Shown piece after piece: positions 10,970 to 40,783 of a DNA stretch of 44,540 nucleotides. The position numbers were made by a program, and so were the translations under genes. Source of the stretch: Methylococcales bacterium (GTDB lineage Bacteria; Pseudomonadota; Gammaproteobacteria; Methylococcales; UBA1147); NCBI GenBank assembly GCA_050740335.1, contig JBOICY010000486.1:1-44540 (forward strand), written 5' to 3'. Position 1 is the stretch's first letter, and each line of letters opens with the position of its first letter. Under the pieces are notes generated by a model that searched no databases, was not told the origin of the DNA, and saw nothing but the letters and a program-made list of their open reading frames with translations.

Positions 10970-11153
10970 GGCTGATCAACAGTGCCGCCTCGATAGACGG
11001 CTTGCCGTGCAAACACCGTGGGAGCGGTTTGAGACCGCGAAAGCGAATCACGTCGATACGCGATCGCGGATGCAATTCGCTCCCGCTTCAACCGGCATAT
11101 GCGTTGGACATCAATACATTTTCGAACTACAGACCGACTCAGGAAAAACGAAC

Positions 11154-15520: not shown

Positions 15521-15546
15521 TTTTACAACACCTCGTCGCTGTTCGA

Positions 15547-15984: not shown

Positions 15985-16166
15985 ACGCAGACCTCTGGCT
16001 CATTGATCGGGGCCACGCGGAATCGTGACAATATTTACGTGAAAATTATCCAGTACATTTCATCACAATATTGTCCCAATTTCATCTTAAATCCGCCGCG
16101 CCTCAATCAGTTTTCGAAGCGGTGGGACGATGACGGCGGCCCATTCTCGATGTTATGATCGGATCA

Positions 16167-16647
16167 TGGCCAAATTCAATCTCCCGACAGCACGGTTCCT
16201 GCAATTTAATCCGCCAATCCAGACCGGCCCGGTCATTCATCGGACAGGCGCCTCGAACGGATTCTTCGCGAAGGGCTATTTGCGGTAAGGGCCGAACTCA
16301 ACCCGCCCGATTCGGCGCACGCGGAGGATGTCTTACCGCCGCGCCAGGGTCTTCGATGGCTTCATCGACGCCATGAACGCGACCGGCGGCGCCGGAGCCA
16401 ACTGTCCAGTGTCGCGGTGTGCGCCTTGCTGAGCCGGGTCGGATATGCGCCGGTCATGCAGGTCGCGTGTCGGGACAAGAACCGAATCGCGATTCAGGGG
16501 GATGTGCTCGGCGCGGCCGCCTTGGGCGTCTGCAATAGTCTGTGCCTGACCAGTGACAGCGTTCAGGCCGGCGTGCTCGACGGCCGCACGCCGTGGTATC
16601 CGGAACGCGAGCGAATTCCCGGCGATTGCGCTCAGGAAACGGATTGA
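16167..16647 (+). pseudogene. remnant of a MetF-type methylenetetrahydrofolate reductase-like gene: N-terminal third only, with multiple frameshifts
   Basis: Motifs are spread over three frames: FFAKGYLR* / AELNPPDSAHAEDVL / ARVFDGFIDAMNATGGAGAN / SRVGYAPVMQVACRDKNRIAIQGDVLGAAALGVCNSLCLTSD. The reading ends where the convergent MCP-like gene stops. Coordinates are +/-1 here. Confidence 0.5.
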
Positions 16648-19497: not shown

Positions 19498-19773
19498 GCT
19501 ATTGAACTCAAGCGATGACCCTGTTCCGGGAATCTTATCACACGGTACGAAAGATCCAGGTAATCGAGCTGTCCCCGTCGGGGTGATCCGCCGGGAATCC
19601 CTTTTCCTGGCACTATCGCTTCGAAAAACGGCATGCTAAAATCCTTGGGTACGGAAATCGGAACCGCGCGCGCCGCTGGTTTTTTGCGATCGCAAATCGA
19701 ATAACGAACAGAAATTTTATCACTCCCCCGAACAACGACTGCCTATCTAAGAATTCCAGCTTTCCTAAACGGT

Positions 19774-20280
19774 TTGTTGGGGATATTTTTTTTGAGCGCC
19801 TGCGCCGAGCACCCTTTGGAGAAAGTCACCGTGGCGACCGAAGAGGGCTGTCAACTGCTTCGCCAGTTTATCGCCGACCACCCGTCCCAGTTCGCTTCGT
19901 TCAGACGTGGAGCGCCTTCGAGCAACGCTTGGCGAAATGCCAATATCTGGAACGCAAAACCTCTTTATCCTGAAACGAAATGCCAAATCTGGGGCTGGGC
20001 CAAGGGACGATCCAATTACTCCTGCCAGTGGAAGGAATCCGACCAGGAAGCCGCTCAATCCGCCTATGACCAGTACAATCCGGAAATCCAAAGCTGCCTC
20101 GGCAGCGACTGGAGCGCTTCCGAACCTCAAGCCAAAACCGGTAAAGAAACCGTATTTCGAAGTCAATCGACCGGTGCCGTGGTCTCGATCCGGTATTTTC
20201 AGGACACCCGGCCCCCGTTTTCGAAACCCTGGTATATCTCAATGGTCATCGGCGACCTTATCGAGACGGTAAAGGATTAG
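19774..20280 (+). CDS. hypothetical lipoprotein
   Basis: 168-aa ORF starting at TTG, with a lipobox-like FFLSAC. I recognise no family. Confidence 0.45.
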   Translation: MLGIFFLSACAEHPLEKVTVATEEGCQLLRQFIADHPSQFASFRRGAPSSNAWRNANIWNAKPLYPETKCQIWGWAKGRSNYSCQWKESDQEAAQSAYDQYNPEIQSCLGSDWSASEPQAKTGKETVFRSQSTGAVVSIRYFQDTRPPFSKPWYISMVIGDLIETVKD

Positions 20281-20529
20281 GTACAGGGATTATAGCATCC
20301 CATATCCGGGCTCAGGTTTGTGATCATCAAACTGGTAACTTGTAGCAACCTATCAACGGAAGAGTGATCGACAAAGTTAACCGCTGCCCCTTCCTTTATG
20401 GCGGATCACCGACCCGGCAAAGAGTTCGCGGAAATCCTTTTACATCGGTGGCTTCAATGGAGACCGACATCCGAGCCGAAAAGCTCGTATGATGAAGAAG
20501 TCAACTGACAATGAAAAACTCCAGGTCGA

Positions 20530-20557
20530 TTGACTATCCTCGACCCGGGGAGATAAT
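20530..20557 (+). promoter_or_regulatory. candidate sigma70 promoter for the island operon
   Basis: TTGACT (20530-20535), a 16-nt spacer, then GATAAT (20552-20557), about 135 nt upstream of ATG 20694. AAGGAG sits about 9 nt upstream of that ATG. Confidence 0.35.
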
Positions 20558-20693
20558 TGCCGCTTTTTGCATCGTCTTGCGTTTTCCCCGGTATCGCCGG
20601 ATGCTACTCCCGGCACTGCCTGCGGCATAGAATGATAAACTCCCCATAACTCCCGTCAGGCCAAACTTTCGAAACTAAAGGAGTGAACGACCG

Positions 20694-21653
20694 ATGAGCG
20701 GAAATAAATATACCGAAGTACAATTCAAACGAGAACAAGAAGAAAAACTGAAACTTTTGCAAAGTCTGCAAGGTTTGCGCGCGGAATGCATGGAACTGCG
20801 AAAACAACTGGACGAGAAGGTCAACGACATGTCGGACGGTTTGCGCGCGACCTTCAATACAGAAGTTGCAGCTTCCCGGCAATGGCTAAGTAAAAAAGAA
20901 ACAACTCCGCCCGATACATACAGTATGGGCCACAGCCTGGATGGTTTACATCACGCACAGCGTAGGCAGGAACAAATCAATAGTGACGGGAGAACCTGTC
21001 TGAAAAAATTCCAACTGGCCTTGACCGAGAAAGCCGGCGCCATCGGCCGAGCGATAGCGGAACAACAGGTGACGGTAAATCAGACCCTGCTGCAAAATAG
21101 TGAGGTGCTGCAATTATGGTATGGCCAAGAGGCGGTGGCCGCCTGGAAATCAAGACTCGAACAGGCAGACCAGTCGGCTCACACCGAGCATTACCCTGAA
21201 GCCGAAGCTCAACTCAGTGCTCTGCACAGTGAAGTCCAGGCAAAGGTTACCCAGGCGACAGAACAGGAAACACAACATCAGCGGCGGTTGTATCTGCTCA
21301 CGGCGTTGCGGCAGGTCACTGCGGATCTACACTTTACCGAGATCACCGAACCCAACTTTGAAAAACCCGGCGAGCGCGGCAGCCGCATCGTATTTTCGGT
21401 GGACACCCATGACCGGGGGCGGATCGATTTTCACCTCACGATGGAGGGCTTGGGTTCATTCTCGGCGATGGGCGATAACCAGTGCCCGGTAGAGTTCGGC
21501 ACACTCTCAAAACAATTGAATGATCAATACGGCATTCAAACCCGATTCCGCCCGGCCACCGGTGAACCCGCTCCCGAATTGCGCCGCAAGGGCGAAAAGG
21601 AATTACCCGATGACGGAGCACAGCGAACGACAGGCGCCGACGCTGGGAACTGA
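20694..21653 (+). CDS. island gene G1: coiled-coil protein of unknown family
   Basis: 319 aa and intact. The N-terminal two thirds are Q/E/K/L-rich heptad-like. The C-terminal roughly 100 aa (RIVFSVDTHDRGRIDFHLTMEGLGSFSAMGDNQCPVEFG) look globular. Confidence 0.6.
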   Translation: MSGNKYTEVQFKREQEEKLKLLQSLQGLRAECMELRKQLDEKVNDMSDGLRATFNTEVAASRQWLSKKETTPPDTYSMGHSLDGLHHAQRRQEQINSDGRTCLKKFQLALTEKAGAIGRAIAEQQVTVNQTLLQNSEVLQLWYGQEAVAAWKSRLEQADQSAHTEHYPEAEAQLSALHSEVQAKVTQATEQETQHQRRLYLLTALRQVTADLHFTEITEPNFEKPGERGSRIVFSVDTHDRGRIDFHLTMEGLGSFSAMGDNQCPVEFGTLSKQLNDQYGIQTRFRPATGEPAPELRRKGEKELPDDGAQRTTGADAGN

Positions 21654-21655
21654 AG

Positions 21656-23505
21656 ATGTCCGTCTGGATTCAGAACCTGCGCAGTGCCCTGCAGGACAAA
21701 CCCGTACTCATCCTCTACGGCAACGTTCGGGATCGCTATATCGATCTGGAGGGCCGAGTATACCCCGGGCTCAACGAATTGCTGGAACAGGTCACCCAGG
21801 AGATCGGTTTGTCTTTTACCGAGCAGGTGACCTACGATCGTGTCGGCCACGAGCGCCGTATCCGGCTGACTGCCTCAAACCCGCCCCCGCAACGCCTGTT
21901 TCCGCGCCAACCAATCAGGTTGCTGACGACGGATTATCCAGTACCCGCCCCCGCGTCCAAAACACTGGCGAGCAGGTCCCCCCTCGCGGATATTCGCGAC
22001 CTGGGTGGCGGAAGTGGTAGAGCCGACGACCAATCGACTGTTCCTGCTCTACTACCTGGACAAGGCGATCGCCTATAAGAGCGGGTACCAGGACGATGAA
22101 AAGGAAGTCCTGCTGTGGCTCGAAAAAATCATCGAAAACATCAACTCGAACCACCGCTTGATCATGGTGGCTCTGCAGGATACCCAGCTGCCGCTGGAGC
22201 TTTACACGCACGCGCCCAAAGTCCGGGTTCTGCCCATCCCGTTACCCGGCAAACCCGACCGACTGGCTTACCTGTCCCATAAACTCGGTTCCAGCTATGC
22301 CCATCGCGAATTGGCCGCTGATCTTACCGATGGTTTATACCTGTATGATCTGGACGCGATCGCCAGGGAACTGCACGACCACACCGATGCGGACAGCCGC
22401 GAAGTGCGCCGTTTGGTCAACCGTTACCGGATCGGCGAGCAGGAGGATCATTGGGGTAGTTTAAGTATTACCAAGCTGCAGCAAGGCGAGGACTGGTTTA
22501 CCAACCAGGGAGGTGTCAAGGGCCAGAAAGAGGCCATTGAACGGGTAATCGACATGCTGGTGCTGGCCCGTGCCGGTCTGACCGGCATGGCCGGAGGCAC
22601 GGCGGCCAAACCCAAGGGCGTGCTGTTTTTCGCCGGCCCGTCGGGTGTCGGAAAAACCTATGTCGCGAAAAAGCTCGCGCAATTCCTGTTCAGTACGGAA
22701 CAAGCCTATATTCGCTTCGATATGAGCGAATTCAAGGATGAACACACCGTGTCCAAGTTGATCGGCTCCCCGCCGGGCTATGTGGGCTATGAACGCGGCG
22801 GCATGTTGACCAGCGCGGTGCGGGAGAAACCTTTTGCGGTTTTGTTGTTCTCGAAATTGAAAAAGCCAACCCGAAAATCTTCGATATTTTTCTGCAATTG
22901 CTCGATGAAGGCCGGCTCACGGACAGTCGCGGACAAACGGTGTTCTTTACCGAAACCGTGGTTATTTCACCTCCAATATCGGCGCCCGCGCGCTCGACAG
23001 CCGCGGCAATCCGATTGCCGAGCAGTCGGCCCTGGATCAACTCCTCGCCACCGATGCAAGCGGAGACGAACGGCAACAACGGGTACGGGAACACTTTCGC
23101 TGCGCAGTGGAAGACTTCTTTCTGTATGAAATCGCGCGCCCGGAACTGCTCAACCGCATCGGCAATAACATTATTCCCTTCAATTACATCCACAGTGTCG
23201 AGGTACAGAAGGACATCATCCTCTCCCATCTGCAACGCATCTCCGAAGAATTCGCCGACAAGTACCGCCGCCAGAACCACGGGCTGCATTTCAACGACCA
23301 AGTGGTCGATTGGTTGGTGCAGCGTTACCGGGCGCGCATCAGCCGCTTCGGCGGGCGCGGCATCACCAACGCCATCAACGATGAAGTCATGCTGCCCCTG
23401 GCGCGCGAGGTGCTTCGAGCGGAATATGAGAATGCCTCAAACTGGCAGTTTCGCCTGGAAATATCAGGACGAAGCGGCGCCATCGAGGTCAAGGCGACAT
23501 CATGA
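21656..23505 (+). CDS. island gene G2: Clp/Hsp100 D2-type AAA+ ATPase with a non-P-loop N-terminal region, interrupted by three frameshifts (pseudogene or assembly errors)
   Basis: Fragments are 21656-22078, 22005-about 22850, about 22850-22966, and 22966-23505. Walker A is [18 protein letters not shown]. Other motifs: [57 protein letters not shown], sensor-1 VVIFTSNIGA (needs one extra T at 22965-22967) and sensor-2 [14 protein letters not shown]. Confidence 0.75.
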
Positions 23506-24606
23506 ACCACCCCGCGCCCTGCGAATACATTGGTCGCCTTGAAGGTGACCAGGGTGAAAACCTGATCCTGATTCTGGACGCGTCTGAAAACGCCGCCCCC
23601 CCGGCGCGGCAATCTCATCCGCCTGTGCATCGAAACGCTCGCCGAACTTCCCGCCGATGTGCGCGTCCAGATTTATTTCCTCGGCAACCCGCAGCCCTAT
23701 TCCGCTCACAATCTGGCCACACAAGCCCCGGCATGGTTCAAGGCCAATTCTTTACGCGCGAGTCTGATCAGTCCGGTGCTGGAAATCCTCTCCGCTATGG
23801 AAGATACCTCCCTGGTCGTGCTGGGTGACGGGCCGATCTACGACCTCGAAGATTGGCGGGACTCGCCGTTCCGGGACCGGCTGCGGCTCGTCCACTTCGG
23901 CATTCCTCTGCAACCCACCGGCGCCGGTCTGCCGGAACTCGAGTCTCCCACCGTCCAAATACTCCTGCACTCGCTGTTCGACCCGGTGACCACGATTAGA
24001 TTGCGCGAATCTGGATTTTTTCCGTTAGACTGGGGCGGTTCCGCTTATCGCCTGATCGAGGATCAGGGACACTTCATCCTGCGCGGCGAACGCCCGTCGA
24101 CCGCAACGCTGACTGTTCGCTGCCTGCTGTGCCGGGACGAAAATCTTCATGTGGAACGCCGTCACGCCACGGGCCGTGTCAGCCGCTTAGAAATGCGCCC
24201 GCTGCCCGCCGTTGGCAGGCCGGCAGACGGGCGGCTGACCTCGGTCGAAGTCGCCATTCTCGACTTGGCCTGCCGGAAACTCGATTTTATCTGCCCACAC
24301 TGCGGCGCGGCTCATGCCTGGAATACCCTGCGATGCCGTCCGCATCGCGCGATCATTGACCAACCGGTGTTTCCCAGTCTATCGAATCAGCGCGGATTCG
24401 TTAAAATTTACCGTGACGCCGAAGGCGCGGAATACTGGCTGGAGGGCAAAGCCCTGTCCATCGGCGACGGTCTCGTTGCCCTCCGGGAAGGCGGCCGCGC
24501 CCGCGTGCTTCGCTTCGATCCCCTCAGCGCCCGCTGGTTGCCCGCAACCGGCGAATTCTCCGCTTACCAACCCTTGGGGGCCGGTTGCTATGGACTGCTG
24601 CTTTGA
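23502..24606 (+). CDS. island gene G3: vWA-like domain protein with a Cys-rich C-terminal domain, frameshifted at a C7 tract
   Basis: ATG 23502 overlaps the G2 stop (ATGA). [10 protein letters not shown], then the C7 tract at 23596-23602, then in the +1 frame [28 protein letters not shown] ... [12 protein letters not shown], which has a vWA-like beta-alpha pattern. The C-terminal part has CLLC and [15 protein letters not shown]. Confidence 0.6.
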
Positions 24607-25216
24607 CCGCACCGGTTTTCCCTATGTCGAGTTGAAAGACCCGGCCTTGGCGGTGAGCCTGTTGCCCCTGACCAAGCTCCAGTTCGAGCGCTACCTGGCG
24701 GATCTCACCCCGCACGGAGATCACTGGTATGAGGAACTTCTGAAACTCAATACGCGCGTCTCGCCCCAACACTTTACCCCGGAGCAGCGGGAGCGGCTGT
24801 TCCTGACCGGGTTGTTGCCCGCGGAAGCAGAAGCCTACGCCGCCTGGCTGGGGGAGGGCTATCGGCTTCCGACCGTGGCGGAATGGCGGGGGATCTATCG
24901 GTGTTTTCAATCTACTACATTTACACCGTTCAAAGCTTCGCCGACTGCCGACGTCGACGACCGCGCAGCCATTTTGTTACGACGCCTGGAGGCGCAAACG
25001 CGACCAAGGACACCGTTGGATTTCAGCCTGATGCACGGCGGTGTAGTGGAATGGGCGCGCGACGGTAACGTCTGGACCGGATTGGGCGCGCCGCGGCCCA
25101 GCTTCCAGACTAATCTGTGGAATCCTCTCAGGGACACGGTTCCCCCCATCCAGCCCAATCAACGTCTGGCTTTCTTCGGCGCGAGATTGGTCCGCGATCT
25201 GGCAAAAATCCCATGA
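24590..25216 (+). CDS. island gene G4: small FGE-sulfatase (SUMF1/EgtB/PvdO) fold protein
   Basis: About 208 aa from ATG 24590, overlapping G3 by 17 nt. Matching motifs: LPLTKLQFERYL, AEAYAAWLGEGYRLPTVAEW, MHGGVVEWARD and FFGARLVRD. Confidence 0.65.
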   Translation: MDCCFDRTGFPYVELKDPALAVSLLPLTKLQFERYLADLTPHGDHWYEELLKLNTRVSPQHFTPEQRERLFLTGLLPAEAEAYAAWLGEGYRLPTVAEWRGIYRCFQSTTFTPFKASPTADVDDRAAILLRRLEAQTRPRTPLDFSLMHGGVVEWARDGNVWTGLGAPRPSFQTNLWNPLRDTVPPIQPNQRLAFFGARLVRDLAKIP

Positions 25217-26738
25217 AGAAAACCCATCGTGTGCTTCTCGTCGCTTGCCTGTGGATCGGACTGTGCTTCATGGCTGTCCCCGCGGTATCGGCCCCGCTCG
25301 AGGAAGCACTGCAATCGGGGGATTTGCGATACTGGCGGGATCTTTATGCTACTCCACCGCCCGATGCCAAGTGGTTCTCCGCCTTGCGCGCTTCGCCAAT
25401 CTACTGGCTCCTGTCGCCCATGGCCTGGTGCTGGCTGCTGATGATATGTGCCTGGCTTGTCTACCGGACGGTATGGCGGCTGTCCGCCTACGGTGAGCTT
25501 GGACTCTTGAACCCGATCCTCGCCTTACCGGTTGGCTGGTTGTTTACTTGGACCCTGTGGGCGGGGTTTGTCGCCTTGCTGATGGGTCTAGTCGGCTTGT
25601 TGTCTATCCTTAATTCCTCCCGGTGGGATAACTTGGGGCAGGAGATGAAGTTGGAGGCGATGAATTCGGAGGCGATGAATTCGGAGGCATCTCAGATTGG
25701 ATGCGCATTCGCGGTGATTCTCTGTATGGCAATTGCGTTGATTATTCAGTTGATTATTCAGCAGAACAGCGAGGCGGTTTTCATGTGGATTGGTTTCTTT
25801 ATTGGCGCCAGTATTGGCGCAGTTGAAGGGCCGATTGGCTGTTTTATGGGCGCGTCGATTGTCGGGTGGATTGCCTCGAAGATTGGCGTGTGGATTATTG
25901 GCTTGGAGATTGTCCCTGTGATTGGTGAGTGGATTGTCGCAGTGCCTGGAGTGGTGCTTGGCAGCATGTTTGGCGGGTTTATTGGCTTCGTGATTGGCAA
26001 TTGGATTGGCTTTAGGATTCGCCGTGTGGAAGGCATGGGGATTGTCGCCGTGCCTGGCGTAGTGGGAGGGACCCTTTACCTCGTCCCAGGCAATTTCTGG
26101 ACCCATTACTTTCTCACCACCGCCCTGGATTCCCTTCTTCTGATCGGCGCCGTGCTCCTGACGTGGCTGCTCTTGGGTGCTGTGATTGTGATTGTAGTCT
26201 CGAGTGCCCACTTTCTGCCTTGGCTGAAGGCAAACAATGAGGCTGCCTGGAGGCTGTGTAAAAAGGACTACCACCGGTTTCGATTGGGTGCGGGCCTGCC
26301 TTGGCCGGTCCGCTGGAGCGGGCGGCTGTTGATGGTCGAGGAACCCCGCGCCAGCATCAGAATTTCGCCGACTATTTCGTCTGCCGATCCTGCGGCGGAC
26401 AGGAGGATTTTGTTACTGCCCGGCGACTCATCGGGATCATCGGTGCGATGCATTCCACTACCGTCCCCGACGAACCGAGCGTTTCTCTCTTTAACCCGTC
26501 CACCCGTCAGGCCATAAGCGCAGACATCGACTGCCTCGACGTCTATCCGCCACCACCGGGCCAAACCATCGACTACGACTATGCGGTCAATGCCGTGTTG
26601 AACGCGCTGAGCGAAGACCACCACCGCAGCCGGCGCCTGAAACAAATCCCGGTGCGGGTCCACGGCCATCCCCCGTTGCCCGAAAACACCCGCCGTATGC
26701 TGGCCGACCGCTTCGGCCCAATCGAAGGAGGATCGTGA
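25213..26738 (+). CDS. island gene G5: signal-anchored polytopic membrane protein with a glycine-zipper-like core and the conserved C-terminal module, with one frame disruption near 26349
   Basis: ATG 25213 overlaps the G4 stop (ATGA). Starts MKKTHRVLLVACLWIGLCFMAVPAVSA. The core is rich in G-x3-G and I-G motifs. The C-terminal module continues in ORF 26301-26738. Relative to G8 there are 2 extra nt (cgcgcc versus cgcc). Confidence 0.7.
25653..25690 (+). repeat. 2.5 tandem copies of a 15-bp unit (ggaggcgatgaattc), encoding EAMNS-EAMNS-EA
   Basis: Read directly; each full unit carries a GAATTC site. Confidence 0.85.
26106..26738 (+). repeat. dispersed direct repeat, copy A (3' end of G5)
   Basis: Aligns by hand with 29674-30298 over its whole length. 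Most positions are identical, for example ctgatcggcgccgtgct and gaacgcgctgagcgaagacca. Confidence 0.85.
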
Positions 26739-27359
26739 ATGTACACCGCATTATTGCAAACGCAAGAAATGTTGAACGTGGCCGCCTGGCAGGCCCCTTC
26801 GGTCGTCAACGGTCCCGGGGAGCGCTTCGTACTGTGGCTGCAAGGCTGTCCGAGGCGTTGTCCCGGCTGCATCAATCCCGGGTTCTTGGCCGATACCCTC
26901 CGCGACTTGGTTCCCGTCGAACAGGTGGCGGCCCGAATCCTGGCCGTTCCGGACATCGAGGGCGTCACCTACAGCGGCGGCGAACCTTTTTCGCAAGCCG
27001 CCGCGCTCGCGGTGCTGAGTGCGCGCTTGCAGGCGAAGGGACTCGGGATTGTGAGCTACAGCGGATACACCCTGCGGGAACTGGAGGACCACCCCGACCC
27101 TGGAATTCAGGCGCTCCTGGCGCGGCTGGACCTGCTGATCGACGGGCCTTATATTCAGGCTCGTTCGAGCCCCTTGCGCTGGCGCGGCAGCACCAACCAG
27201 CAATTGCATTTCCTGAGCCCGCGCTATGCCGCGTATGCGGATTGTGAATCGGAGTCGCGCGCCGAGGTCGAATTATCCCTGGACGCGAACGGCCTGGCCG
27301 CGACCGGAATTTGGCCGGAAGACTTGCTGCAGCGGCTGAAACAAATACTCGAGGGGTAG
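26739..27359 (+). CDS. island gene G6: radical-SAM activating enzyme of the NrdG/PflA type (4Fe-4S single-cluster domain)
   Basis: 206 aa and intact. VVNGPGERFVLWLQGCPRRCPGCINP carries the CxxxCxxC cluster motif. Also YSGGEPF and LIDGPY ... WRGSTNQQLHFL, as in anaerobic RNR activases. ATG 26739 abuts the G5 stop TGA. Confidence 0.8.
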   Translation: MYTALLQTQEMLNVAAWQAPSVVNGPGERFVLWLQGCPRRCPGCINPGFLADTLRDLVPVEQVAARILAVPDIEGVTYSGGEPFSQAAALAVLSARLQAKGLGIVSYSGYTLRELEDHPDPGIQALLARLDLLIDGPYIQARSSPLRWRGSTNQQLHFLSPRYAAYADCESESRAEVELSLDANGLAATGIWPEDLLQRLKQILEG

Positions 27360-27363
27360 GCCG

Positions 27364-28347
27364 ATGTTGTGTCCTTTCAATCTATGTCAAGTACGGCAAT
27401 TCACCAAAAACGCTGATTCCGGTTTTACCTGCCCCGAATGCAAAGAGTCCGTTCCTGCCTTATACGTAAACGGTTATTCAGAGTATCCGCCGTCGGTATT
27501 GAGTTCCGTCGGATTCCGCGGACATGGTAAAACCGTCTATCTGGCCGCGCTCTTTCATGTCCTGGCGCATCATGAACTGCCGCGTCATTGGTGGGGTTTT
27601 TATAAAGCTGTCGTTGGCCAACACAGTCAGGAGATTCTGGATAAAAATATCGGTATGCTGAAGGCAGGGAAGTTGCCCGATTCCACCGCCCAGAACTTTC
27701 CCAAACCCACCCTGGTTCAGGTAACTGGAATTCCGACCGGGAAAAGGGCGACTTTGCTTTGCTATGACGCTGCCGGCGAAAGCTTTGAAAAAATCACCCG
27801 AATGGTCACTTATGCAAAATTCTTGGCCGGCGCCACAACCGTCTTGTTTTTACTCAGCATTCCGGATCTAGAACGAGAAGAATATGCCAGCGTAGCCCAA
27901 GAGATGGAAAGACTGTTAACCGTCTACCGAAATGGTATCGAGGAATTGGGCGGCAATACTCGACCTCAGCGCCTGGTGGTAGTGTACACTAAGGCGGATG
28001 AATGGAACGCTTTGGCGCGCCCTGAATACAGTAAGTTGCTGAACTATCTTAAGGGCGGAACCTTCGACGGCCTGGACCATTATTCAAGCTATAAAAAATC
28101 GCTGCTCGCGACGTCTGATCAGTTGAAAAATCTGACAGCCGAACATTTGCGGGCACAGGCTTTTTTGAACCATGCCAAGGACAAATTTGCTGGCGTGGAA
28201 TTTTGTGTGATCTCCGCTCTGGGCGCATCGCCAAAGGGCCAGAACCTCCAGACTGGCATTGCTCCACGCCGGGTGCTCGACCCGTTGTTATGGGTCTTGG
28301 ATAAAGATCTTTCAAGGCGAAACTTTGTTTCCCATCCAGCCAAATAA
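27364..28347 (+). CDS. island gene G7: N-terminal Zn-ribbon plus a TRAFAC-type P-loop GTPase
   Basis: 327 aa and intact. CPFNLC ... CPEC ribbon. G1 is GFRGHGKTVYL, G3 is LLCYDAAGE and G4 is VVVYTKADEW. Confidence 0.7.
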   Translation: MLCPFNLCQVRQFTKNADSGFTCPECKESVPALYVNGYSEYPPSVLSSVGFRGHGKTVYLAALFHVLAHHELPRHWWGFYKAVVGQHSQEILDKNIGMLKAGKLPDSTAQNFPKPTLVQVTGIPTGKRATLLCYDAAGESFEKITRMVTYAKFLAGATTVLFLLSIPDLEREEYASVAQEMERLLTVYRNGIEELGGNTRPQRLVVVYTKADEWNALARPEYSKLLNYLKGGTFDGLDHYSSYKKSLLATSDQLKNLTAEHLRAQAFLNHAKDKFAGVEFCVISALGASPKGQNLQTGIAPRRVLDPLLWVLDKDLSRRNFVSHPAK

Positions 28348-28398
28348 GTGTCCGGCTTTCGTCAGCGTGAGATTGGTACGGGAAGTGACTAAGTACCG

Positions 28399-30298
28399 AT
28401 GCTGACATCCTTCGCCCGGTCCCTGATTTGCTTTGTTGGGGTAGCGCTAGTCCCTTCATCCCTTCTTGCAGGTGTTCTTCCTCGCACCGTTCCCTTCCTG
28501 GTTGAAGCGCTTAAGTATGAACCATATTGGGTACGCGTAGAAATCGTTGATGCACTCTCGGAGGGGGCGAAAGTCGGCGATCCCACTGCTGTTCCTGCTC
28601 TAATCGAAGTGTTGAACGATGACTCTGAAAAGGTACGGAGAAAAGCCGTCGATGCATTCGTTCAGATTGGCAACGCCGCGGTTCCCGCGCTGGTTGAAGC
28701 ACTGAAGAATGACAGTTACACGGTACGGGATGCACTCGCTGGGATTGGTAAACCTGCTGTTCGCGCCCTGATTGAGGCGCTGAAGGACGACTCTGAAAAT
28801 GTTCGCGCGGGAGCCGCTGATGTGTTGGGGAAGATCGGTGATCCTGCTACTGTTTCCGCCCTGGTCGAGGTGGCTTAAGAAGGACCCTGAATGGGTGCGG
28901 AATGAAGCCGCCGATGCACTCGTTGAGATTGGTAGCGCAGCCGTCCCCGCCTTGGTTGAGGCGCTGAACGATCACACTAAAGAGGTGCGGGAAAAAGCCG
29001 CCGAGGCTTTGGGAAAAATTGGCAACCCTACATACCCCGTCCTTGCGAAGGCTGCTCAGTCTGGCAATTTGAACTTCTGGCGGGTTTTGTATGCCAAGCT
29101 TCCCGCGAACGCAGGATGGGTTCGGGTTCTGCGTACCATTCCTACCTATTGGCTCCTATCCCCCATGACCTGGCTCTGGCTGATGATAATATGGGGTGTG
29201 CTTACCCACGACAGGGATTGGGAATGGCGGCTGTCCGGCTTCGGCAGGCTTGAACTTTTGTCTCTAATCCTCGCTTTACCGATTGGCTGGTTGTTCTCTT
29301 GGAGCGTATCGGCGGGGTTTATCGCCTTGCTGGTGAGTTTACCCATCGCGTGGGGGGTTGCCCTTCCTATTCCAAGGCGTAGTAAGTTGGATGAGGATCC
29401 GATTGAAAGCGTGTTGATGCCATTCTTCCTCTTATCCGGGGCACTTGTCTGGTTGACTACTCCAGCGAACAACTCGTTGACTATTAGCGAACAACCTACC
29501 GTGTGGATTGGAATGGCATGGTTTAGCGGGTTAATTAGCTTGGTACTTGCCGCATTCGTTGACTCTACGATTGGCATGCGCAGGGGGATTGTTCCGAGCG
29601 TGCTGATGGGCTTGGCGATTGGCCCGGTGATATTCTACCCCCCCAACAATTCCTCGCCCGATTACTCTGGCGATTACTTTCTAACCACCGCCGGGGATTC
29701 CCTCGTTCTGATCGGCGCCGTGCTGCTGACGTGGCTGCTCTTGGGCGTCGTGAGTGTAGTCTTAAGTGCCCGCTTTCTGCCTTGGCTTAAACTGAGCAAA
29801 GAGGCGACTAATTGGCTGTGTAAAAGGGATTACCACCGCTTCCGATTGGGACCGGGCCTCCCCTGGCCGGTCCGCTGGAGCGGACGATTGTTCGCGGTCG
29901 AGGAACCCCGCCAGCATGACAATTTCGCCGAATATTTCGTATGCCGGTCCTGCGGTAGACACGAGGGTTTTGTTACCGCCCGGCGACTAATCGGAATCAT
30001 CGGTGCGATACCTTCCGCCGTCGCGCCCGACGAATGGAACGTTTCCCTCTTTAATCCGATTGCCCGTCAGACCATAAGCGCCGACATCGACCGCCTGGAT
30101 CTGTACCCTCCGCCATTGGGCAAAACCATTGACTACGACTATACAGTCAACGCCGTATTGAACGCGCTGAGCGAAGACCATCACCGCATCCGGCCCTTGA
30201 AACAAATCCCGGTATGGATCCATGGCCGGCCGCCGCTGCCCGAAAACACCCGCCGCATGTTGGCCGACCGCTTCGGCTCAGTGAAAAACGTCGCGTAA
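28399..30298 (+). CDS. island gene G8: signal-anchored HEAT-repeat protein fused to the membrane region and C-terminal module shared with G5, with one 1-nt insertion near 28873
   Basis: ORFs 28399-28878 and 28799-30298. Removing one G at 28872-28873 restores ALVEVLKKDPEWVRNEAADALVEIG, which fits the repeat consensus. Downstream are the TM region and the C-terminal module. Confidence 0.75.
28486..29035 (+). repeat. six tandem HEAT/PBS-lyase-type repeats (about 31 aa, about 93-bp period) inside G8
   Basis: Recurring units of the form VPAL(I/V)EALxDDxxxVRxxAAxALGKIGxxA. Confidence 0.7.
29674..30298 (+). repeat. dispersed direct repeat, copy B (3' end of G8)
   Basis: See copy A at 26106-26738. 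Confidence 0.85.
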
Positions 30299-30345
30299 CA
30301 CGGGTGCCCTTGAACCAGAAGCGATGCCCCTTGAGGAGATCTCCG

Positions 30346-31960
30346 ATGCCGATCAGTGCCGCTCAACTGATTTACGCCAATGTCGAAAAAGACCGCTCGC
30401 CGCACCGGCGGGGTGGATTTCAAACCCTGTATTACAGCCAGTCGCGTCTCGGCGAGACGCAGGTCGACGCGATCGAGCCGCGCCTGTTTTACGCGCATGG
30501 CGCGGGCAATCCGCCGAAAGGCCTGTTTTTTCCTTTGGGTCAGAAGCAACTGGTTTTGGCGCGCATTGTTCCGCTGGAAGACGTCGATGCCTTTGGCCGG
30601 GAGGGCCGTTATCTGGCCCATGCGCTGGTGTTCGAGCGCAGCGACTGGATCGCCGAGAGTCTGGACCCCATCACCCTGCTCCAGCGGTTGCCCTTTTTAA
30701 CTGATTTGGATCAGGCGCTGGCTTCGGGCGATGAGGCCAGCGGCGATATTGAACCGCTTGATCTGACCCTGGCCGCTACGAAGAGCCTTCAGACGCGATG
30801 GCCGGTAGCGGTGCTCCAACGACTGACCCTTTATGCGCTGCGCGCCGAGGCGATAGCCCGGGAACGCCGCGCCTTGGCCTTGATCGGTCCGCCCGCCGGG
30901 GTCGAGCAGGCGCTGGCCGAGGTGCTCAGGGCGGTGCCGGTGGCCTTGAACCCCACGTGCAGTTTCGACAGCTTTTTTTATGGAGGTAATTTCACCGCCA
31001 CTCCGTTCTGGGCGGTGGGTCTGCCGGAAGCCCCGCCGCCGGGTCGTTTTATTCGGGTGGATGTGACGAAGCGTGCATTTTTCGACGACGAAGCCGCACC
31101 CGTCGCGCGGAGCGCCTTCGAGTGTTGGGTGGTGGCACGGCTGCAAGACGGAGAACCCGGTCTCGAGCACGAGCGTGAAATCGCTTACGACCTCTGCCGC
31201 TGGCTGGAGGGAACCCTCCCGATTGCCGCTTTGCCGACGGAAGTGCCGGAACCGGTTCTCACGGCGGTATTCCATGCGGCCCCGGCGCAGGCTAAAGAGA
31301 GGGTCTATGAACGCCTGACGCACACTTTGCCGGAGGTTTTGGCGGAGTTCGTGTGGACCGATGTCCAACCGCAACGGACCGATCCCGAGCGCTACGCGGA
31401 ATTGCGCCAGGGTTTTGCGGCGCCGATGCTGTCGGAGTGGTTGTGGCTCCGGTTGACCCGAGCCGGTGCGAAACCGCCCATGCCGGCGGTGCAACGCGCC
31501 GTGGCGGAATGGCTGCGACGCTATCCGCATCCCAATCTGACTTTGCTGTCGCTGATCTGGGACGGAAAGTGGCAAACCTTGCAAGCCGAACTGGTTCGTA
31601 TGGAACCGGACGCCTACGAGGCGTTGCTTCCATCCTTGCTGCGCGCCGCCCCTAAGCCTGTTGCTGCCCGAACGCGGCGAGCCCTTCGTGCGCGGCTGGC
31701 TGGCCGAACGCTTCGCCGCACCACTATCCTTGCCGGAACTGGTCAGCGCCCTGCTCCGCCAGCATGAACCCGCCGCCCTCGTTCCGCTTGCCCCGCTGCT
31801 AAAGGATTTGCGTCCACGGGAAAGGCGGTCATTGGAGCAGCTCATCGTCCCGCACGCGGCGGATATCCCCCCCGAATTTGCCCGAGCCCTAAGCGAGGCC
31901 AGGGAAACTCAATCCTCCGGTGGGTTTTTGGCCGGACTGAAACGCTGGTGGCAATCGTGA
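30346..31960 (+). CDS. island gene G9: large mostly helical protein with a GAP1-like (GTPase-associated protein 1) N-terminus, frameshifted near 31645-31660
   Basis: GAGGAG lies 8 nt upstream of ATG 30346. MPISAAQLIYANVEKDRSPHRRGGFQTLYYSQSRL resembles the QLxYTS...GGxQ N-terminal signature I associate with GAP1-N domains. ORF 30214-31767 is continued by 31661-31960 in another frame. Confidence 0.5.
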
Positions 31961-32542: not shown

Positions 32543-32559
32543 TTCTGTGGCACTGCATC

Positions 32560-32765
32560 AGGTGTCCTGACGGTTTCCGCCCAAGGGATGAAACGGGAAG
32601 CCGGTGCATTCCTGACATAGTCAAACTCGGAACCATTCCGGCGCTGCCCCCGCAACGGTAAGCGAGTTTTGCTGCGGATCACACGGCCACTGCGTTTCGA
32701 CGCGGGAAGGCGGTCCGCCGGGTAAACAGGTCGCTCGCAAGCCCGGAGACCGGCCTGAAGCCGTA
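32560..32765 (+). promoter_or_regulatory. cobalamin (B12) riboswitch
   Basis: Conserved core aacGGGAAgccGGTG ... attCCGGcgCtGCCCCCGCAACgGTAAgcg, then GGCCACTG ... GGGAAGGC, then the B12-box-like AGCCCGGAGACCGGCC. It sits directly upstream of cob genes. Confidence 0.8.
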
Positions 32766-32962
32766 GGTAGGCATTACGGAGGGTGATGGCTCGCACACTG
32801 GTTTTCGGTTCCGAGTTGATTCTTTTTTCCTCCGCACATGCAGAACGGTCACCGATAAGCGCGGGTGAGCGCGACGGAGGAAACCAACATGAAGGAATAC
32901 CGTATACCCACGGCTACTCTGGCGCTTTCGGTGACATCCGGAACCGCGGAGGTTGGCCCGGT

Positions 32963-33568
32963 TTGAACACGGTCGGCCCGGAACAGCGCCACCAGGAACG
33001 CATGCGGCGGAAAAAGGCGGTGATCGATGCCGCGATCGAACGCGCCGATCGCGATCAGGGCCTGCTTCTGGTGCTTACCGGAAACGGCAAGGGCAAATCC
33101 AGCTCGGCATTCGGGATGGCCGCGCGTGCGCTGGGTCACGGCATGAAGGTCGGCGTTGCGCAATTCATCAAGGGCCGTTCGGATACCGGCGAGGAGGTAT
33201 TTTTTCGCCGCGAGCCCGGTGTGATCTGGCATGTGCTCGGCGAGGGCTTCACGTGGGAGACGCAGAATCGCGCGCGCGATACCGAAACCGCGCGGCAAGG
33301 CTGGACCGTCGCGCGGAAGATGCTGAGCGACCCGGGTCTCAATCTCGTGATACTCGACGAACTGACCTACCCGCTCAAATACGGTTGGCTCGAGCTTGAA
33401 ACCGTATTGGCCGACCTCAAGAACCGGCCTCGGATGCAGCACGTGGTGGTCACCGGCCGTGCCGCGCCCGAAGCACTCATCGACGCGGCCGATACCGTAA
33501 CCGAGTTGCGCGATGTCAAACACGCGTTCCGGGCCGGGATTCGTGCGCAGAACGGGGTGGATCTATGA
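32963..33568 (+). CDS. cobO: cob(I)yrinic acid a,c-diamide adenosyltransferase
   Basis: QRHQERMRRKKAVIDAAIERA ... LLLVLTGNGKGKSSSAFGMAARALGHG ... VILDE. I prefer TTG 32963, with GGAGG 10 nt upstream, giving about 201 aa. The longest ORF starts at 32783 inside the riboswitch region. Confidence 0.8.
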   Translation: MNTVGPEQRHQERMRRKKAVIDAAIERADRDQGLLLVLTGNGKGKSSSAFGMAARALGHGMKVGVAQFIKGRSDTGEEVFFRREPGVIWHVLGEGFTWETQNRARDTETARQGWTVARKMLSDPGLNLVILDELTYPLKYGWLELETVLADLKNRPRMQHVVVTGRAAPEALIDAADTVTELRDVKHAFRAGIRAQNGVDL

Positions 33569-34848
33569 GACGCTGCCCCGCGCTGTTTATCGCCGCACCC
33601 GCATCCGGTCAGGGTAAAACCACCGTCACCGCGGCGCTGGCCCATTATCACCGGAATCATGGCCGCGTGGTTCGGGTATTCAAGACCGGTCCCGATTTTC
33701 TCGACCCGATGATCCTGGAACGGGCCTCCGGCGCTCCGGTTTACCAACTCGACCTGTGGATGGGCGGCGAGGCACACTGCCGCGACCTGATCCATGCAGC
33801 GGCCGGCGAAGCCGATCTGATCCTGATAGAGGGTGTGATGGGGCTATTCGACGGCGATCGATCCAGCGCCGATCTCGCGATGCTGTTCGGCATCCCGGTG
33901 CTCGCCGTGATCGACGGTTCGGCCATGGCCCAGACCTTCGGCGCCCTCGCGCACGGGCTCGCGACCTACCGCGCGGGACTGCCTTTCGCCGGCGTGTTCG
34001 CGAACCGCGTCGCGAGCGAGAATCACTATGCGATGCTCGCCGAGAGCCTGCCGGCGGGATTAGCCTCCTTCGGCTGGCTCGCGCGCGATCCGAACATCGC
34101 CCTGCCCGAGCGGCACCTGGGCATTGTGCAGGCAAGCGAGATCGCCGATCTCGATTCCCGTATCGCCACGGCCGCCGCCGCACTCAGGGGCGTCGACCAG
34201 GCCTTGCCGCCCCCGGTGTCATTCGCCGCCCCGGAGGAAACCTCCGTCATACCGCTGCTCGAAGGCGTGCGCATCGCCGTGGCGCGCGATGCGGCCTTCG
34301 CGTTTCTATATCGCGCCAACCTCGATTTGTTGCGCGCGCAGGGCGCCGAGCTGGCGTTCTTTTCTCCATTGGATAATGAGCGACCGCCACAGTCCGATGC
34401 CCTCTACCTGCCGGGTGGCTATCCCGAATTGTACCTGGAGCAACTCGCGGCCAACCAGGGCATGAACGCCGCGATCCATGCCCATCACCGCGCCGGTAAA
34501 CCGATCGTCGCCGAATGCGGCGGGATGTTGTATTTGATCGAATCACTGACCGACCTCCAGGGCCACTGCGCCGGGATGGTCGGCCTGTTACCGGGGCGCG
34601 CCACGATGCAGGCAAGGCTCGGCAACCTGGGGCTGCACGGAGCACAACTTCCGGAAGGAGAACTCAGAGGCCACACTTTTCACTATTCGAGCATGACGGG
34701 CGGCTGTGAGCCGATTACGCACTCTCGTTCCGCCCGCCATCACGGCAGCGCTGAGCCGGTCTATCGCATCGGGCGGCTGACCGCTTCCTATCTGCACTGG
34801 TACTTCCCCTCCAACCCGAGCGCATCGGCACGACTGTTCCTGACATGA
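33565..34848 (+). CDS. cobB: cobyrinate / hydrogenobyrinate a,c-diamide synthase
   Basis: 427 aa. FIAAPASGQGKTTVTAALA P-loop, KTGPDFLDP, and a C-terminal GATase domain with AECGGMLYL. Confidence 0.9.
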   Translation: MRRCPALFIAAPASGQGKTTVTAALAHYHRNHGRVVRVFKTGPDFLDPMILERASGAPVYQLDLWMGGEAHCRDLIHAAAGEADLILIEGVMGLFDGDRSSADLAMLFGIPVLAVIDGSAMAQTFGALAHGLATYRAGLPFAGVFANRVASENHYAMLAESLPAGLASFGWLARDPNIALPERHLGIVQASEIADLDSRIATAAAALRGVDQALPPPVSFAAPEETSVIPLLEGVRIAVARDAAFAFLYRANLDLLRAQGAELAFFSPLDNERPPQSDALYLPGGYPELYLEQLAANQGMNAAIHAHHRAGKPIVAECGGMLYLIESLTDLQGHCAGMVGLLPGRATMQARLGNLGLHGAQLPEGELRGHTFHYSSMTGGCEPITHSRSARHHGSAEPVYRIGRLTASYLHWYFPSNPSASARLFLT

Positions 34849-35498
34849 AGCGATTCACGCAAGCGGAAATCGACGCGGTTTATCGCGTCATACGCGAACG
34901 GCGCGACATGCGACACTTCCTGCCCGATCCGGTCGACCCGGACCTGCTGATCCGCCTGCTGCAGGCGGCGCACTGCGCCCCAAGTGTGGGACTGATGCAG
35001 CCCTGGCGTTTCGTACGCGTTGGCGACCCGGTCCTGCGGCGCGAGATCCATACCCTGGTCGAGGCGGAACGCAGAGCCACCGCGCTGGCGCTGGACGAGC
35101 GCCAGGACGAATTCCTGCGCCTCAAGGTCGAGGGCATACTCGAGTGCGGTGAATTACTCGTCGCCGCGCTGATGGATGCGCGGGAACGCCACATCTTCGG
35201 GCGCCGCACGCTGCCCGAGATGGATTTAGCCTCGGTCGCCTGCGCAATCCAGAACTTGTGGCTTGCCGCACGCGCCGAAGGGATCGGCATGGGATGGGTT
35301 TCCCTGTTCGATCCGGAGGCCTTGGGCCGGCTGCTCGCGATGCCTTCGGACGCAAAGCCGGTGGCCATCCTGTGCCTCGGTCATGTGGAAGCCTTCTATT
35401 CCGCGCCGATGCTCGAACTCGAGGGTTGGACCCGGAGCCGGCAATTAGAAACGCTCGTGTACCGCGACGCCTGGGGCAACACCGAGACGCCGGCATGA
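34845..35498 (+). CDS. bluB: 5,6-dimethylbenzimidazole synthase
   Basis: 217 aa, nitroreductase fold. IRERRDMRHFLPDPV ... AHCAPSVGLMQPWRF. Lies in cob operon context. Confidence 0.85.
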   Translation: MKRFTQAEIDAVYRVIRERRDMRHFLPDPVDPDLLIRLLQAAHCAPSVGLMQPWRFVRVGDPVLRREIHTLVEAERRATALALDERQDEFLRLKVEGILECGELLVAALMDARERHIFGRRTLPEMDLASVACAIQNLWLAARAEGIGMGWVSLFDPEALGRLLAMPSDAKPVAILCLGHVEAFYSAPMLELEGWTRSRQLETLVYRDAWGNTETPA

Positions 35499-35758
35499 AT
35501 TTCGATCCCGGCAAAGGTCCCCGGCGCATCGTCTGCCTGACCGAGGAAACCACCGAGACGCTGTATCGGCTCGGCGAGCACTTCCAACCCGAACAGGTCA
35601 AGGCCCGGCCGGGGTGGGAAAAGATTCCCGCGGTTCGGAGCAGTCACCTTTACGAAGTCAAATCATCCGACATCCTGCAGCCGGGTCCGGCCGCATTAAC
35701 CGACGGTGTTCGACAGATTCATGCGATCGTGCTGCGTTGGCTGGAAGAGCAGCGATGA
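35495..35758 (+). CDS. 87-aa mini-ORF resembling a BtuF/TroA-type periplasmic-binding protein with its middle deleted
   Basis: PRRIVCLTEETTETLYRLGE looks like the N-terminal strand and helix. It is fused directly to RPGWEKIPAVRSSHLYEVKSSDILQPGPAALTDGV, which looks like the C-terminal end. ATGA overlaps are present at both ends. Confidence 0.4.
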   Translation: MNFDPGKGPRRIVCLTEETTETLYRLGEHFQPEQVKARPGWEKIPAVRSSHLYEVKSSDILQPGPAALTDGVRQIHAIVLRWLEEQR

Positions 35759-36666
35759 CCAACGCGCTGATCATCTTCCTGGCGCTTGGACTCGATGCCT
35801 GTGTCGGCGAACCGCGCCGTTTTCATCCGCTGGTCGGCTTCGGACATCTGGCCCAGGCGCTGGAACGGCGTATTCATTCCGACTCGGTTGTCCGCGGAAC
35901 AATCGCCGTGTTGTTGCTGATCGCGCCCTTCACCGTGCTCGCGATGCTCATTTCCCGGTTGCCCTGGGGCACCGCGATCGAGGTTATGCTGCTCTACCTC
36001 GCGATCGCCTGGACCAGTCTCGACGAACACGCGGGCCGGGTGCGCGATGCCTTAATCGCCAATGATCTATCCAGCGCGCGGCAAGGGATTGGGCTGCTGG
36101 TCAGCCGCGATACCGCGGCGCTCGACCGTTCAGGGGTAGCCAAAGCGGTTGTCGAATCCGTTCTGGAAAACGGTAATGATGCGATCTTCGGCGCGATTTT
36201 CTGGTTTGTGGTGGCCGGGGCGCCGGGCGTGGTGTGCTATCGTCTCGGTAATACGCTGGATGCGATGTGGGGCTATCGCGATCCGCGTTATCTGCGTTTC
36301 GGCCGGGCCGCGGCGCGCTTCGATGATCTGTTAAATTTTCTGCCGGCGCGGCTCACGGCGCTCAGCTATGCCTTACTTGGTGATTTCAAGCGCGCGGTGC
36401 GCTGCTGGCGCATCCAGGGCGCCACCTGGAAAAGTCCGAACGCCGGACCGGTAATGGCCGCTGGCGCGGGAAGTCTCGGTGTAGTGCTCGGCGGAGCGGC
36501 GGTTTATCACGGATTGGCACAGATACGCCCGGCGCTCGGTGAAGGACAAACGGCCGATGCCGATGATATCGACCGAGCGCTGCGCCTGATCCGGCGCGCC
36601 TTGCTGCTGTGGCTCGCGATTCTGGTTTCGGGAGGGTGGCTTGTCGATCATTGCACGGCAGCCTGA
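35755..36666 (+). CDS. cbiB: adenosylcobinamide-phosphate synthase
   Basis: MTNALIIFLALGLDACVGEPRRFHPLVGFG, membrane protein, about 303 aa from ATG 35755, which forms an ATGA overlap with the preceding ORF. Confidence 0.9.
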   Translation: MTNALIIFLALGLDACVGEPRRFHPLVGFGHLAQALERRIHSDSVVRGTIAVLLLIAPFTVLAMLISRLPWGTAIEVMLLYLAIAWTSLDEHAGRVRDALIANDLSSARQGIGLLVSRDTAALDRSGVAKAVVESVLENGNDAIFGAIFWFVVAGAPGVVCYRLGNTLDAMWGYRDPRYLRFGRAAARFDDLLNFLPARLTALSYALLGDFKRAVRCWRIQGATWKSPNAGPVMAAGAGSLGVVLGGAAVYHGLAQIRPALGEGQTADADDIDRALRLIRRALLLWLAILVSGGWLVDHCTAA

Positions 36667-40744: not shown

Positions 40745-40783
40745 CTCCGACCGGGCTCCCGATCTGATAAAAGCGAGCACACT

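Follow-up and report, generated by a model that had tools for sequence, protein, structure and literature searches.

To which system does a run of nine closely packed genes belong, at positions 20694-31960 of contig JBOICY010000486.1, and is this copy of it intact? The stretch of the contig analysed here is 44,540 nucleotides (nt) long and is referred to as the window; coordinates given with a window gene are those of the window, and numbers of the form L0xx denote related loci from other genomes. The nine reading frames, G1 to G9, all lie on the + strand. An earlier reading, made from the sequence alone, had held that they map to no named system. This is correct for the accessory genes, which form an undescribed theme and match no PADLOC system, but not for G7 and G9, which are the defining pair of the predicted DO-GTPase/GAP1-N2 class. 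Classification and decay taken jointly, the nine genes are likely an operon of this GTPase-centric conflict class that carries a conserved accessory theme and is present here as a recently decayed copy.

The GTPase, GAP1 and FGE-fold core

GTPase-centric nucleoside triphosphate (NTP)-dependent conflict systems were predicted by Kaur, Burroughs, Iyer & Aravind (eLife 2020, PMC7159879) and are defined by a constant pair, a DO-GTPase and a GAP1 protein. One genome per GTDB species was scanned with a profile of G7 homologues, which gave 69 loci. These loci were searched with the window proteins by tblastn, phmmer and iterated hidden Markov models (HMMs), and counts are given out of 71, that is, the 69 loci plus L001 and L002. 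Frameshifts in the window genes were located by DNA/protein alignment with the closest relative, L001, whose core genes share 74-84% amino acid identity with those of the window, and with the internal paralogue; the frame-repaired proteins were used in all later comparisons.

G7 (27364..28347, + strand, intact) is a DO-GTPase2-family TRAFAC GTPase that matches Pfam DO-GTPase2 (PF19993) with 40.5 bits against a cutoff of 27. Homologues of G7 number 195. The motifs GHGKT, DxxGE, TKAD and SALG are invariant in the family, and D135-x-x-G138-E139, which contains the Walker B glutamate, is invariant across 22 homologues. One N-terminal Zn ribbon (CxxC...CxxC) is present in the family alignment; GTPases of the class usually have two (PMC7159879). 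The first CxxC of this ribbon (27364-27400) is altered in the window, where it reads CPFNLC instead of the CPFC found in nearly all of 21 aligned homologues.

G9 (30346..31960, + strand) is a GAP1 protein with an N-terminal GAP1-N2 domain (PF20013, 31 bits, cutoff 24), present as a pseudogene with an 11-nt deletion. Its orthologues adjoin G7 homologues in 53 of the 71 loci, and a profile search of PDB sequences with GAP1 returned sub-threshold matches only. G4 (24590..25216, + strand, intact) is a small protein of the FGE-sulfatase/C-type-lectin fold (PF03781, 28.9 bits, cutoff 23.3), which is present in 46 of the 71 loci and lies directly upstream of the GAP1 gene in most of them. Read by eye, G4 has no Cys pair at what we take to be the position of the catalytic pair of FGE. 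The domain calls made for G4, G7 and G9 in the sequence-only reading are each confirmed above the Pfam cutoff. Its proposal of a sensor role for the FGE fold is not: G4 is instead a conserved core partner of GAP1, and variability resides in the N-terminal parts of the G5/G8 proteins.

Conservation of the gene set and its accessory theme

The core consists of G7, G9 and G4 together with one to five G5/G8-like proteins, and a complex theme adds G1, G2, G3 and G6. This complex theme was found in about 16 loci from at least 8 phyla, several of them intact, with G6 accompanying G2 in 15 of 16 loci. Two loci from Thermodesulfobacteriota (L007 and L008) hold an intact, tight + strand operon in the order G1-G2-G3-G4-G9-G6-G7, followed by a gene for a protein with the C-terminal domain of G5 and G8. 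Complete but permuted sets are present in Verrucomicrobiota (L032), Planctomycetota (L039, L045, L073), Armatimonadota (L013, L036), the complete genome of an Abditibacteriota member (L052), Ca. Kryptonium (L053), Gammaproteobacteria (L056) and Poribacteria (L072), and L059 also has these genes in permuted order. Orthologues of the nine genes co-localise in dozens of loci across phyla, so the grouping proposed from the sequence alone stands on this point.

What is new is the accessory theme, composed of a coiled-coil protein, an AAA+ ATPase of the ClpB-D2 type, a vWA/Zn-ribbon protein and a radical S-adenosylmethionine (SAM) enzyme of the glycyl-radical enzyme (GRE) activase type; what is known is the predicted DO-GTPase/GAP1-N2 class. 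The main text of Kaur et al. 2020 contains neither a ClpB-like AAA+ protein, nor a GRE-activase radical SAM enzyme, nor the G1 and G3 families (PMC7159879), and one of its supplementary files holds nothing on radical SAM, ClpB or NrdG. Radical SAM is mentioned once in that paper, for a subset of FtsH-type MoxR-vWA systems, with a predicted role in peptide modification (PMC7159879). In a literature search, only Kaur et al. 2020 discusses DO-GTPase/GAP1-N2 systems, the words appearing elsewhere in passing, and no other paper combines the component terms.

Several components are fused to one another in relatives. G3 is fused to G4 in L037, L040, L046 and L067, G4 to G9 in L044, and G7 to G9 in L059, and a G3-like protein is fused to a second GTPase in L054, L062-65, L068 and L070. 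The G3-G4, G4-G9 and G7-G9 fusions, together with fusions of G7 to an FGE domain, argue for a single physical complex to which these proteins would belong. Two of the fusion loci have further features. L046 has two DO-GTPase2 fusions (10001-11929, 13977-16529), one with a complete FGE-sulfatase domain and one with TPR repeats. The G3-G4 fusion of L037 (4446-7307) has a weak match to the bacterial Death-like domain 1 (bDLD1) at its N-terminus.

The membrane paralogues G5 and G8 and their C-terminal domain

G5 (25213..26738, + strand, pseudogene with a +2 insertion) is a polytopic membrane protein with a glycine-zipper-rich segment. G8 (28399..30298, + strand, pseudogene with a +1 insertion) comprises an N-terminal signal or membrane segment, HEAT repeats and a polytopic membrane region. 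The two proteins share 49% identity over 477 residues and both have multiple hydrophobic segments; this identity and a Pfam HEAT match confirm that G8 is a HEAT-repeat membrane paralogue of G5. G8 is 50% identical to its homologue in L001, against 74-84% for the core genes.

The last ~150 residues of G5 and G8 comprise a Zn ribbon (CxxC...CxxCG) followed by an α/β domain of ~110 residues. Iterated HMM searches located this C-terminal domain in 41 loci, in one to five tandem paralogues and always at the C-terminus. The N-termini that precede it are unrelated to each other and consist mostly of HEAT repeats, sometimes of membrane or glycine-zipper segments. Beside a constant core there are components that differ even among close relatives, both in the number of paralogues and in their N-termini. 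The C-terminal domain may serve as a docking domain, a link between the constant core and variable sensor/effector modules. In function it would then correspond to the FNIII component that Kaur et al. 2020 describe, or to their GAAD/EAD adaptors.

AlphaFold models were made for two orthologues, P0134 for the docking domain and P0121 for G3, and not for the window proteins themselves. The model of P0134, a short family member, has a pLDDT of 88.7. Foldseek found no PDB match for it at E ≤ 1e-3, only weak matches to small-GTPase-like α/β folds, and profile searches of PDB sequences with the docking domain gave sub-threshold matches only. The largest array of this family that we describe is in a Bacteroidia metagenome-assembled genome (MAG), where five tandem paralogues of ~390-430 amino acids with the docking domain adjoin a DO-GTPase2/GAP1 pair (L048, 13046-19147, - strand) and form a diversified array.

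The AAA+, vWA and coiled-coil proteins

G2 (21656..23505, + strand, pseudogene with four frameshifts) matches Pfam AAA_2 and ClpB_D2-small and aligns to residues 524-840 of ClpB, which confirms its earlier assignment as a Clp-D2-type AAA+ ATPase. The Walker A motif GPSGVGKT, the pore loop GYVGY and the D2-small lid are present, and the pore loop is intact in orthologues. The Walker B motif, DEIEKA, is intact in L001 and is broken in the window by the frameshift at 22851, inside 'FDEIE'. The N-terminal ~280 amino acids of G2 have no P-loop, contain an invariant HGNVRD motif and give weak, sub-threshold matches to p97 D2 in a profile search of PDB sequences. This domain is probably a degenerate D1, because a full Clp_N-D1-D2 AAA+ protein occupies the operon position of G2 in L057 (6934-9300).

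G3 (23502..24606, + strand, pseudogene with a +1 insertion) is built of a vWA domain, a β-sandwich, a Zn ribbon (CPHC..H..C) and a C-terminal β domain. Searches of sequence libraries with G3 returned nothing, and a profile search of PDB sequences gave only a sub-threshold match, to the region of the anthrax toxin receptor vWA domain that holds the metal ion-dependent adhesion site (MIDAS). The AlphaFold model of the intact G3 orthologue P0121 has a pLDDT of 89.5, and its top Foldseek matches are the Sec23/24 trunk, ITIH1, integrin βI and vWF A3, with E values from 2e-8 to 1e-3. At the level of this model the vWA fold is confirmed, in line with the vWA-like character ascribed to G3 from the sequence alone. 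The MIDAS motif DxSxS reads DASES in most G3 orthologues. The corresponding window segment (23574-23594) reads DASEN, a change of Ser to Asn.

G1 (20694..21653, + strand, intact) is a coiled-coil protein in which a long helical region precedes a conserved C-terminal α/β domain. No match to it was obtained in the Pfam, NCBIfam or PADLOC libraries. Orthologues occur in 15 loci; in a set of 1.84 billion proteins, this rare family accounts for 214 cluster representatives. Its members have an invariant N-terminal MSGxK and a conserved C-terminal tail, [KR]GExE/DxP, which in the window falls in the region 21560-21653. This acidic tail might plausibly be a ligand for the MIDAS site of G3 or a handle for the AAA+ protein.

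Probable decay of the window copy

Eight frameshifting indels affect five of the nine genes (G2, G3, G5, G8 and G9) over 11.3 kb. Four of them are in G2: -1 at 21884 in a C run, -4 at 21977, -1 at 22851 in Walker B, and -1 at 22966. The remaining four are a +1 at 23596 in G3, again in a C run, a +2 (GC) at 26350-26351 in G5, a +1 G at 28873 in G8, and a -11 at 31648 in G9. The gene coordinates of the sequence-only reading hold; what it implied without stating is that five of the nine are no longer continuous open reading frames (ORFs). Values of dN/dS against L001 are between 0.17 and 0.37 in every gene (0.19 for G4), so purifying selection acted during most of the divergence and inactivation was recent. 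The window copy is most likely a recently inactivated pseudogene cluster.

The strongest of the alternatives, unlikely in our view but worth real weight, is that the operon still works in its host and that sequencing or assembly introduced the eight frameshifts. It would accommodate the low dN/dS in every gene, including the four-times-broken G2, and the position of two indels (21884 and 23596) in C runs; moreover, L001, which is also broken, lies on a contig with long-read-style naming. The other six indels are nevertheless outside homopolymers and include the -4, -11 and +2 changes, and no frameshift was seen among the flanking genes checked. Eight flanking genes (BtuR/CobO, nitroreductase, CobD, CobU, CobT, CobS, DeoC and FTR) match Pfam profiles essentially over their full length. 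The rest of the flanking ORFs, among them CobQ, CtaA, an amine oxidase and a dicarboxylate symporter, tile the window unbroken. The window copy also carries additional damaging substitutions, namely the S to N change in the MIDAS motif of G3 and the change in the first CxxC of the ribbon of G7, and the sister loci L002/L003 and L005 have lost genes independently.

The sister copies are damaged in various ways. In L001 (identical to L004) a stop splits the AAA+ lid, the GAP1 gene is frameshifted, and Uma2, DUF4351, DUF4160 and DUF2442 genes are inserted into the operon. L002 (identical to L003) retains only remnants and the radical SAM-GTPase pair. In L005, from Ca. Methylumidiphilus, the radical SAM gene is lost and GAP1 is truncated. 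The system thus appears to be decaying across the gammaproteobacterial clade of L001, L002/L003 and L005, in each case differently.

Layout of the operon, its flanks and a possible housekeeping role

The junctions between the nine genes are tight. The G1 stop (21653) and the G2 ATG (21656) are separated by a 2-nt gap; G2/G3 and G4/G5 have ATGA overlaps at 23502-23505 and 25213-25216, respectively; the end of G3 (24606) and the start of G4 (24590) overlap by 17 nt; and the G5 stop (26738) abuts the G6 ATG (26739). A 4-nt gap separates G6 from G7, and gaps of 51 nt and 47 nt precede G8 and G9, respectively. The ORF map bears out the arrangement read from the sequence in every coordinate, and the description of a single-strand, tightly packed operon with the NTPase, vWA, FGE and HEAT vocabulary of NTP-dependent conflict systems is supported. 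A sigma-70-like promoter candidate, TTGACT-16-GATAAT (20530..20557, + strand), is located 137 nt 5' of G1; it agrees at 10 of 12 positions, and because such sites occur in this region at chance expectation it is a weak candidate.

Upstream of G1 is a 1.2-kb spacer (19498-20693) that contains a 168-amino-acid ORF with a TTG start (19774-20280), which has no Pfam match and resembles none of the ORFs in the related loci. Neither gene remnants nor flanking direct repeats were found in this spacer or in the 0.6-kb downstream spacer. Directly 3' of the island is a cobalamin riboswitch (Rfam RF00174, 108.6 bits, 32543-32772), followed by an intact cob operon (32783-41527) that encodes BtuR/CobO, a CobQ-like protein, a BluB-like nitroreductase, CobD, an aminotransferase, CobQ, CobU, CobT and CobS. 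Genes of the tetrahydromethanopterin (H4MPT)-linked C1 pathway occupy 41622-44534 on the - strand and encode the formylmethanofuran-H4MPT formyltransferase FTR, a GXGXG protein and an amidohydrolase. These C1 genes, and the closest relatives of the locus, which are in Methylococcales-like MAGs (L005), suggest that the window is of methanotroph or methylotroph origin. The Pfam scan of the flanking genes bears out the earlier description of housekeeping flanks with no integrase.

With such neighbours, the gene set could be a housekeeping machine for maturation or quality control, acting for example in metallocofactor insertion or membrane-protein remodelling. AAA+/vWA chaperone pairs often insert metals, as do CoxD/E, NorQ/D, CbbQ/O and Mg-chelatase, and a radical SAM enzyme with a GTPase recalls HydE/G-HydF. 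The resemblance of G2/G3 and of G6/G7 to these pairs speaks for such a role, as do the adjoining cobalamin riboswitch and cob operon, the lack of a PADLOC match and the absence of any match in a tblastn search of plasmid and phage collections with the GTPase. We nevertheless consider a housekeeping role improbable. The genomic context is not conserved, cob genes being neighbours only here, and no conserved candidate client enzyme is found nearby. In relatives, the neighbours include TIR_2/TPR proteins, PemK, DUF559, Uma2 and toxin-antitoxin pairs, and nuclease genes are among them. Furthermore, the distribution over at least 8 phyla is patchy, with shuffled gene order, one to five tandem paralogues with hypervariable N-termini and frequent decay. 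We retain the assignment to the GTPase-centric conflict class, for which an anti-invader function is predicted by comparative genomics.

The radical SAM enzyme and a possible mechanism

G6 (26739..27359, + strand, intact) is a radical SAM enzyme of the GRE-activase type that matches Pfam Fer4_12 with an E value of 4.5e-28 and also matches Radical_SAM. Its best NCBIfam match is NrdG (TIGR02491, 6.7e-25), at 87.8 bits and thus below the curated cutoff of 126 bits, and 16 of its 17 NCBIfam matches are GRE activases, the other being QueE. The motifs VNGPGERF...GCPRRCPGC and GGEP are present, and G6 aligns to PFL-AE structures through GPGxR-GCxxxCxxC and GGEP. The call of an NrdG-type activase in the sequence-only reading is confirmed at the level of the family, the best match remaining below the equivalog cutoff. 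That reading had also singled out the position of the radical SAM gene between two membrane paralogues, which proves to be a local accident: in nearly all loci that have it, the G6 gene is directly 5' of the GTPase gene G7, the two often sharing 4 nt, and genes of the G5/G8 type have other positions.

A scan for R-V-x-G-aromatic, as a conserved motif that the radical SAM enzyme might target, in the alignments of G1, the N-terminal domain of G2, G3 and G9 gave loose candidates only ('FGIxTxF' in G1, 'ASG' in G3 and 'GRxGRY' in G9), and no assignment was made; 'GRxGRY' of G9 is invariant also in systems with no radical SAM gene. The 'CRSCG...ARRLIGIIG' segment of G5 and G8 (resembling the Zn-ribbon and RxxGY glycyl-radical tail of NrdD), the GRE-activase type of G6 and its place between the two genes could suggest that the C-terminal domain of G5 and G8 receives a glycyl radical from G6. 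This is very improbable and was rejected as contradicted by conservation: the candidate glycine is replaced in most family members, which read VVAVLD, the domain is equally common in simple loci without any radical SAM gene, and the adjacency of G6 and G5/G8 is not conserved while that with the GTPase gene is. The docking-domain model, too, shows a small α/β fold with no GRE-like match.

A working scheme can be proposed for the conflict operon, with low confidence in its individual steps. The variable HEAT/membrane proteins would sense an invader-derived or envelope signal and would dock via their common C-terminal domain on a switch formed by GAP1, the FGE-fold protein and the GTPase. GTP binding or hydrolysis by G7 may set the threshold of this switch. 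The AAA+/vWA/coiled-coil trio would then thread, remodel or unfold a protein target, and hydrogen abstraction from a protein partner by the GTPase-coupled radical SAM enzyme would serve as the activating or the effector step. The output might be membrane damage or growth arrest, for example via the glycine-zipper membrane domain of G5. A more specific version, which we put forward only as a rather unlikely possibility, is that the GTPase/GAP1 switch licenses the GRE-activase-type enzyme to place a radical on a system component presented by the ClpB-like unfoldase and the vWA protein, or on an invader protein, or to cleave or crosslink it. If true, protein-radical chemistry would be an effector or activation step in prokaryotic immunity, which would explain the decay in aerobic methanotroph lineages.

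Several points weigh against the assignment to the conflict class and its reading as a decayed copy. PADLOC-DB v2 gave no system-level match, in agreement with the sequence-only reading; only generic AAA_2 (PDC-M37B, DolB) and HEAT matches were obtained, and none for G1, G3, G4, G5, G6, G7 or G9. No experiment on any member of the class was found in the literature, 'conflict system' being a prediction of comparative genomics. FNIII repeats, which are characteristic of GAP1-N2 systems, were not found in the nine proteins or in orthologous operons. No substrate of the radical SAM enzyme was identified, and no operon protein has a recognisable glycyl-radical domain (Gly_radical, NRDD). Mobile-element or defence neighbours are absent from the window, and it is conceivable that the frameshifts arose in assembly.

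Of the predicted conflict systems that lack an experimental foothold, those built on DO-GTPase and GAP1 rank with the largest, and the theme described here is compact, with 7-9 genes, and spread over at least 8 phyla. Its enzymology is directly assayable, since it includes a threading AAA+ ATPase, a vWA protein with a MIDAS motif and a radical SAM enzyme of the GRE-activase type that is tied to a GTPase, and the new docking domain marks the variable proteins that would act as sensors or effectors. Intact operons for cloning are available in L007 (3135-12511), L008 and the complete Abditibacteriota genome (L052, AP024152). A radical SAM activase that acts inside an NTPase switch with no glycyl-radical enzyme partner would, if confirmed, represent an unusual biochemical logic. 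The gammaproteobacterial copies, which decayed independently, amount to a natural experiment, if a small one, on whether the system is costly or of no use in that lineage.

Comparison with known systems

Three of the nine proteins resemble known proteins outside the conflict systems. G3 is reminiscent of Sec23/Sec24, the COPII inner coat proteins that work with Sar1, a small TRAFAC GTPase, in its vWA-like trunk, Zn finger and β-sandwich. TM-scores are ~0.3, however, only the vWA core superposes well, and G3 has no helical or gelsolin domains; the likeness is an analogy and may reflect a shared vWA fold only. G2 shares the D2 module, the GYVG pore loop and the D2-small lid with the class I unfoldases ClpB, ClpV and ClpA, from which it differs in having neither Clp_N nor a middle domain and in a weakly detectable D1 that lacks the P-loop, with L057 as the exception. 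G6 resembles the NrdG/PflA activases in its CxxxCxxC motif, the preceding GPGxR, the GGEP SAM motif, its small size and its best profile and PDB matches. It departs from them in scoring below the NrdG cutoff, in having no glycyl-radical enzyme or domain encoded nearby and in the position of its gene, which adjoins that of the DO-GTPase.

At the level of whole systems, the pairing of an AAA+ protein with a vWA/MIDAS protein and the FGS and HEAT vocabulary are shared with the MoxR-vWA ternary systems of the VMAP, iSTAND and FtsH types. The AAA+ protein found here is nevertheless of the ClpB-D2/AAA_2 kind with a threading pore loop rather than a MoxR protein (AAA_3 reaches only 0.029 in an orthologue). 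No VMAP or iSTAND component was found, and the radical SAM enzyme, which is GTPase-coupled, is of the same type as the GRE activases NrdG and PflA.

The closest likeness in the defining pair is to the GAP1-N2 GTPase-centric systems, which contain an FNIII-repeat component, have themes built on tubulin, on HSP70/GrpE/DnaJ and on kinase/PP2C/vWA, and have FGS partners in planctomycetes (PMC7159879). With these systems the operon shares a DO-GTPase that has an N-terminal Zn ribbon and a Walker B glutamate, a GAP1-N2 protein in the same operon, variable membrane-associated accessories, occasional FGS partners and, in some themes, vWA. It differs in that its accessory theme is none of the three described in the paper and that the FGE-fold protein belongs to the constant core rather than to the variable effectors. 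Finally, HEAT/membrane proteins with the ZnR-α/β C-terminal domain take the variable role that the FNIII component has in the other GAP1-N2 systems.

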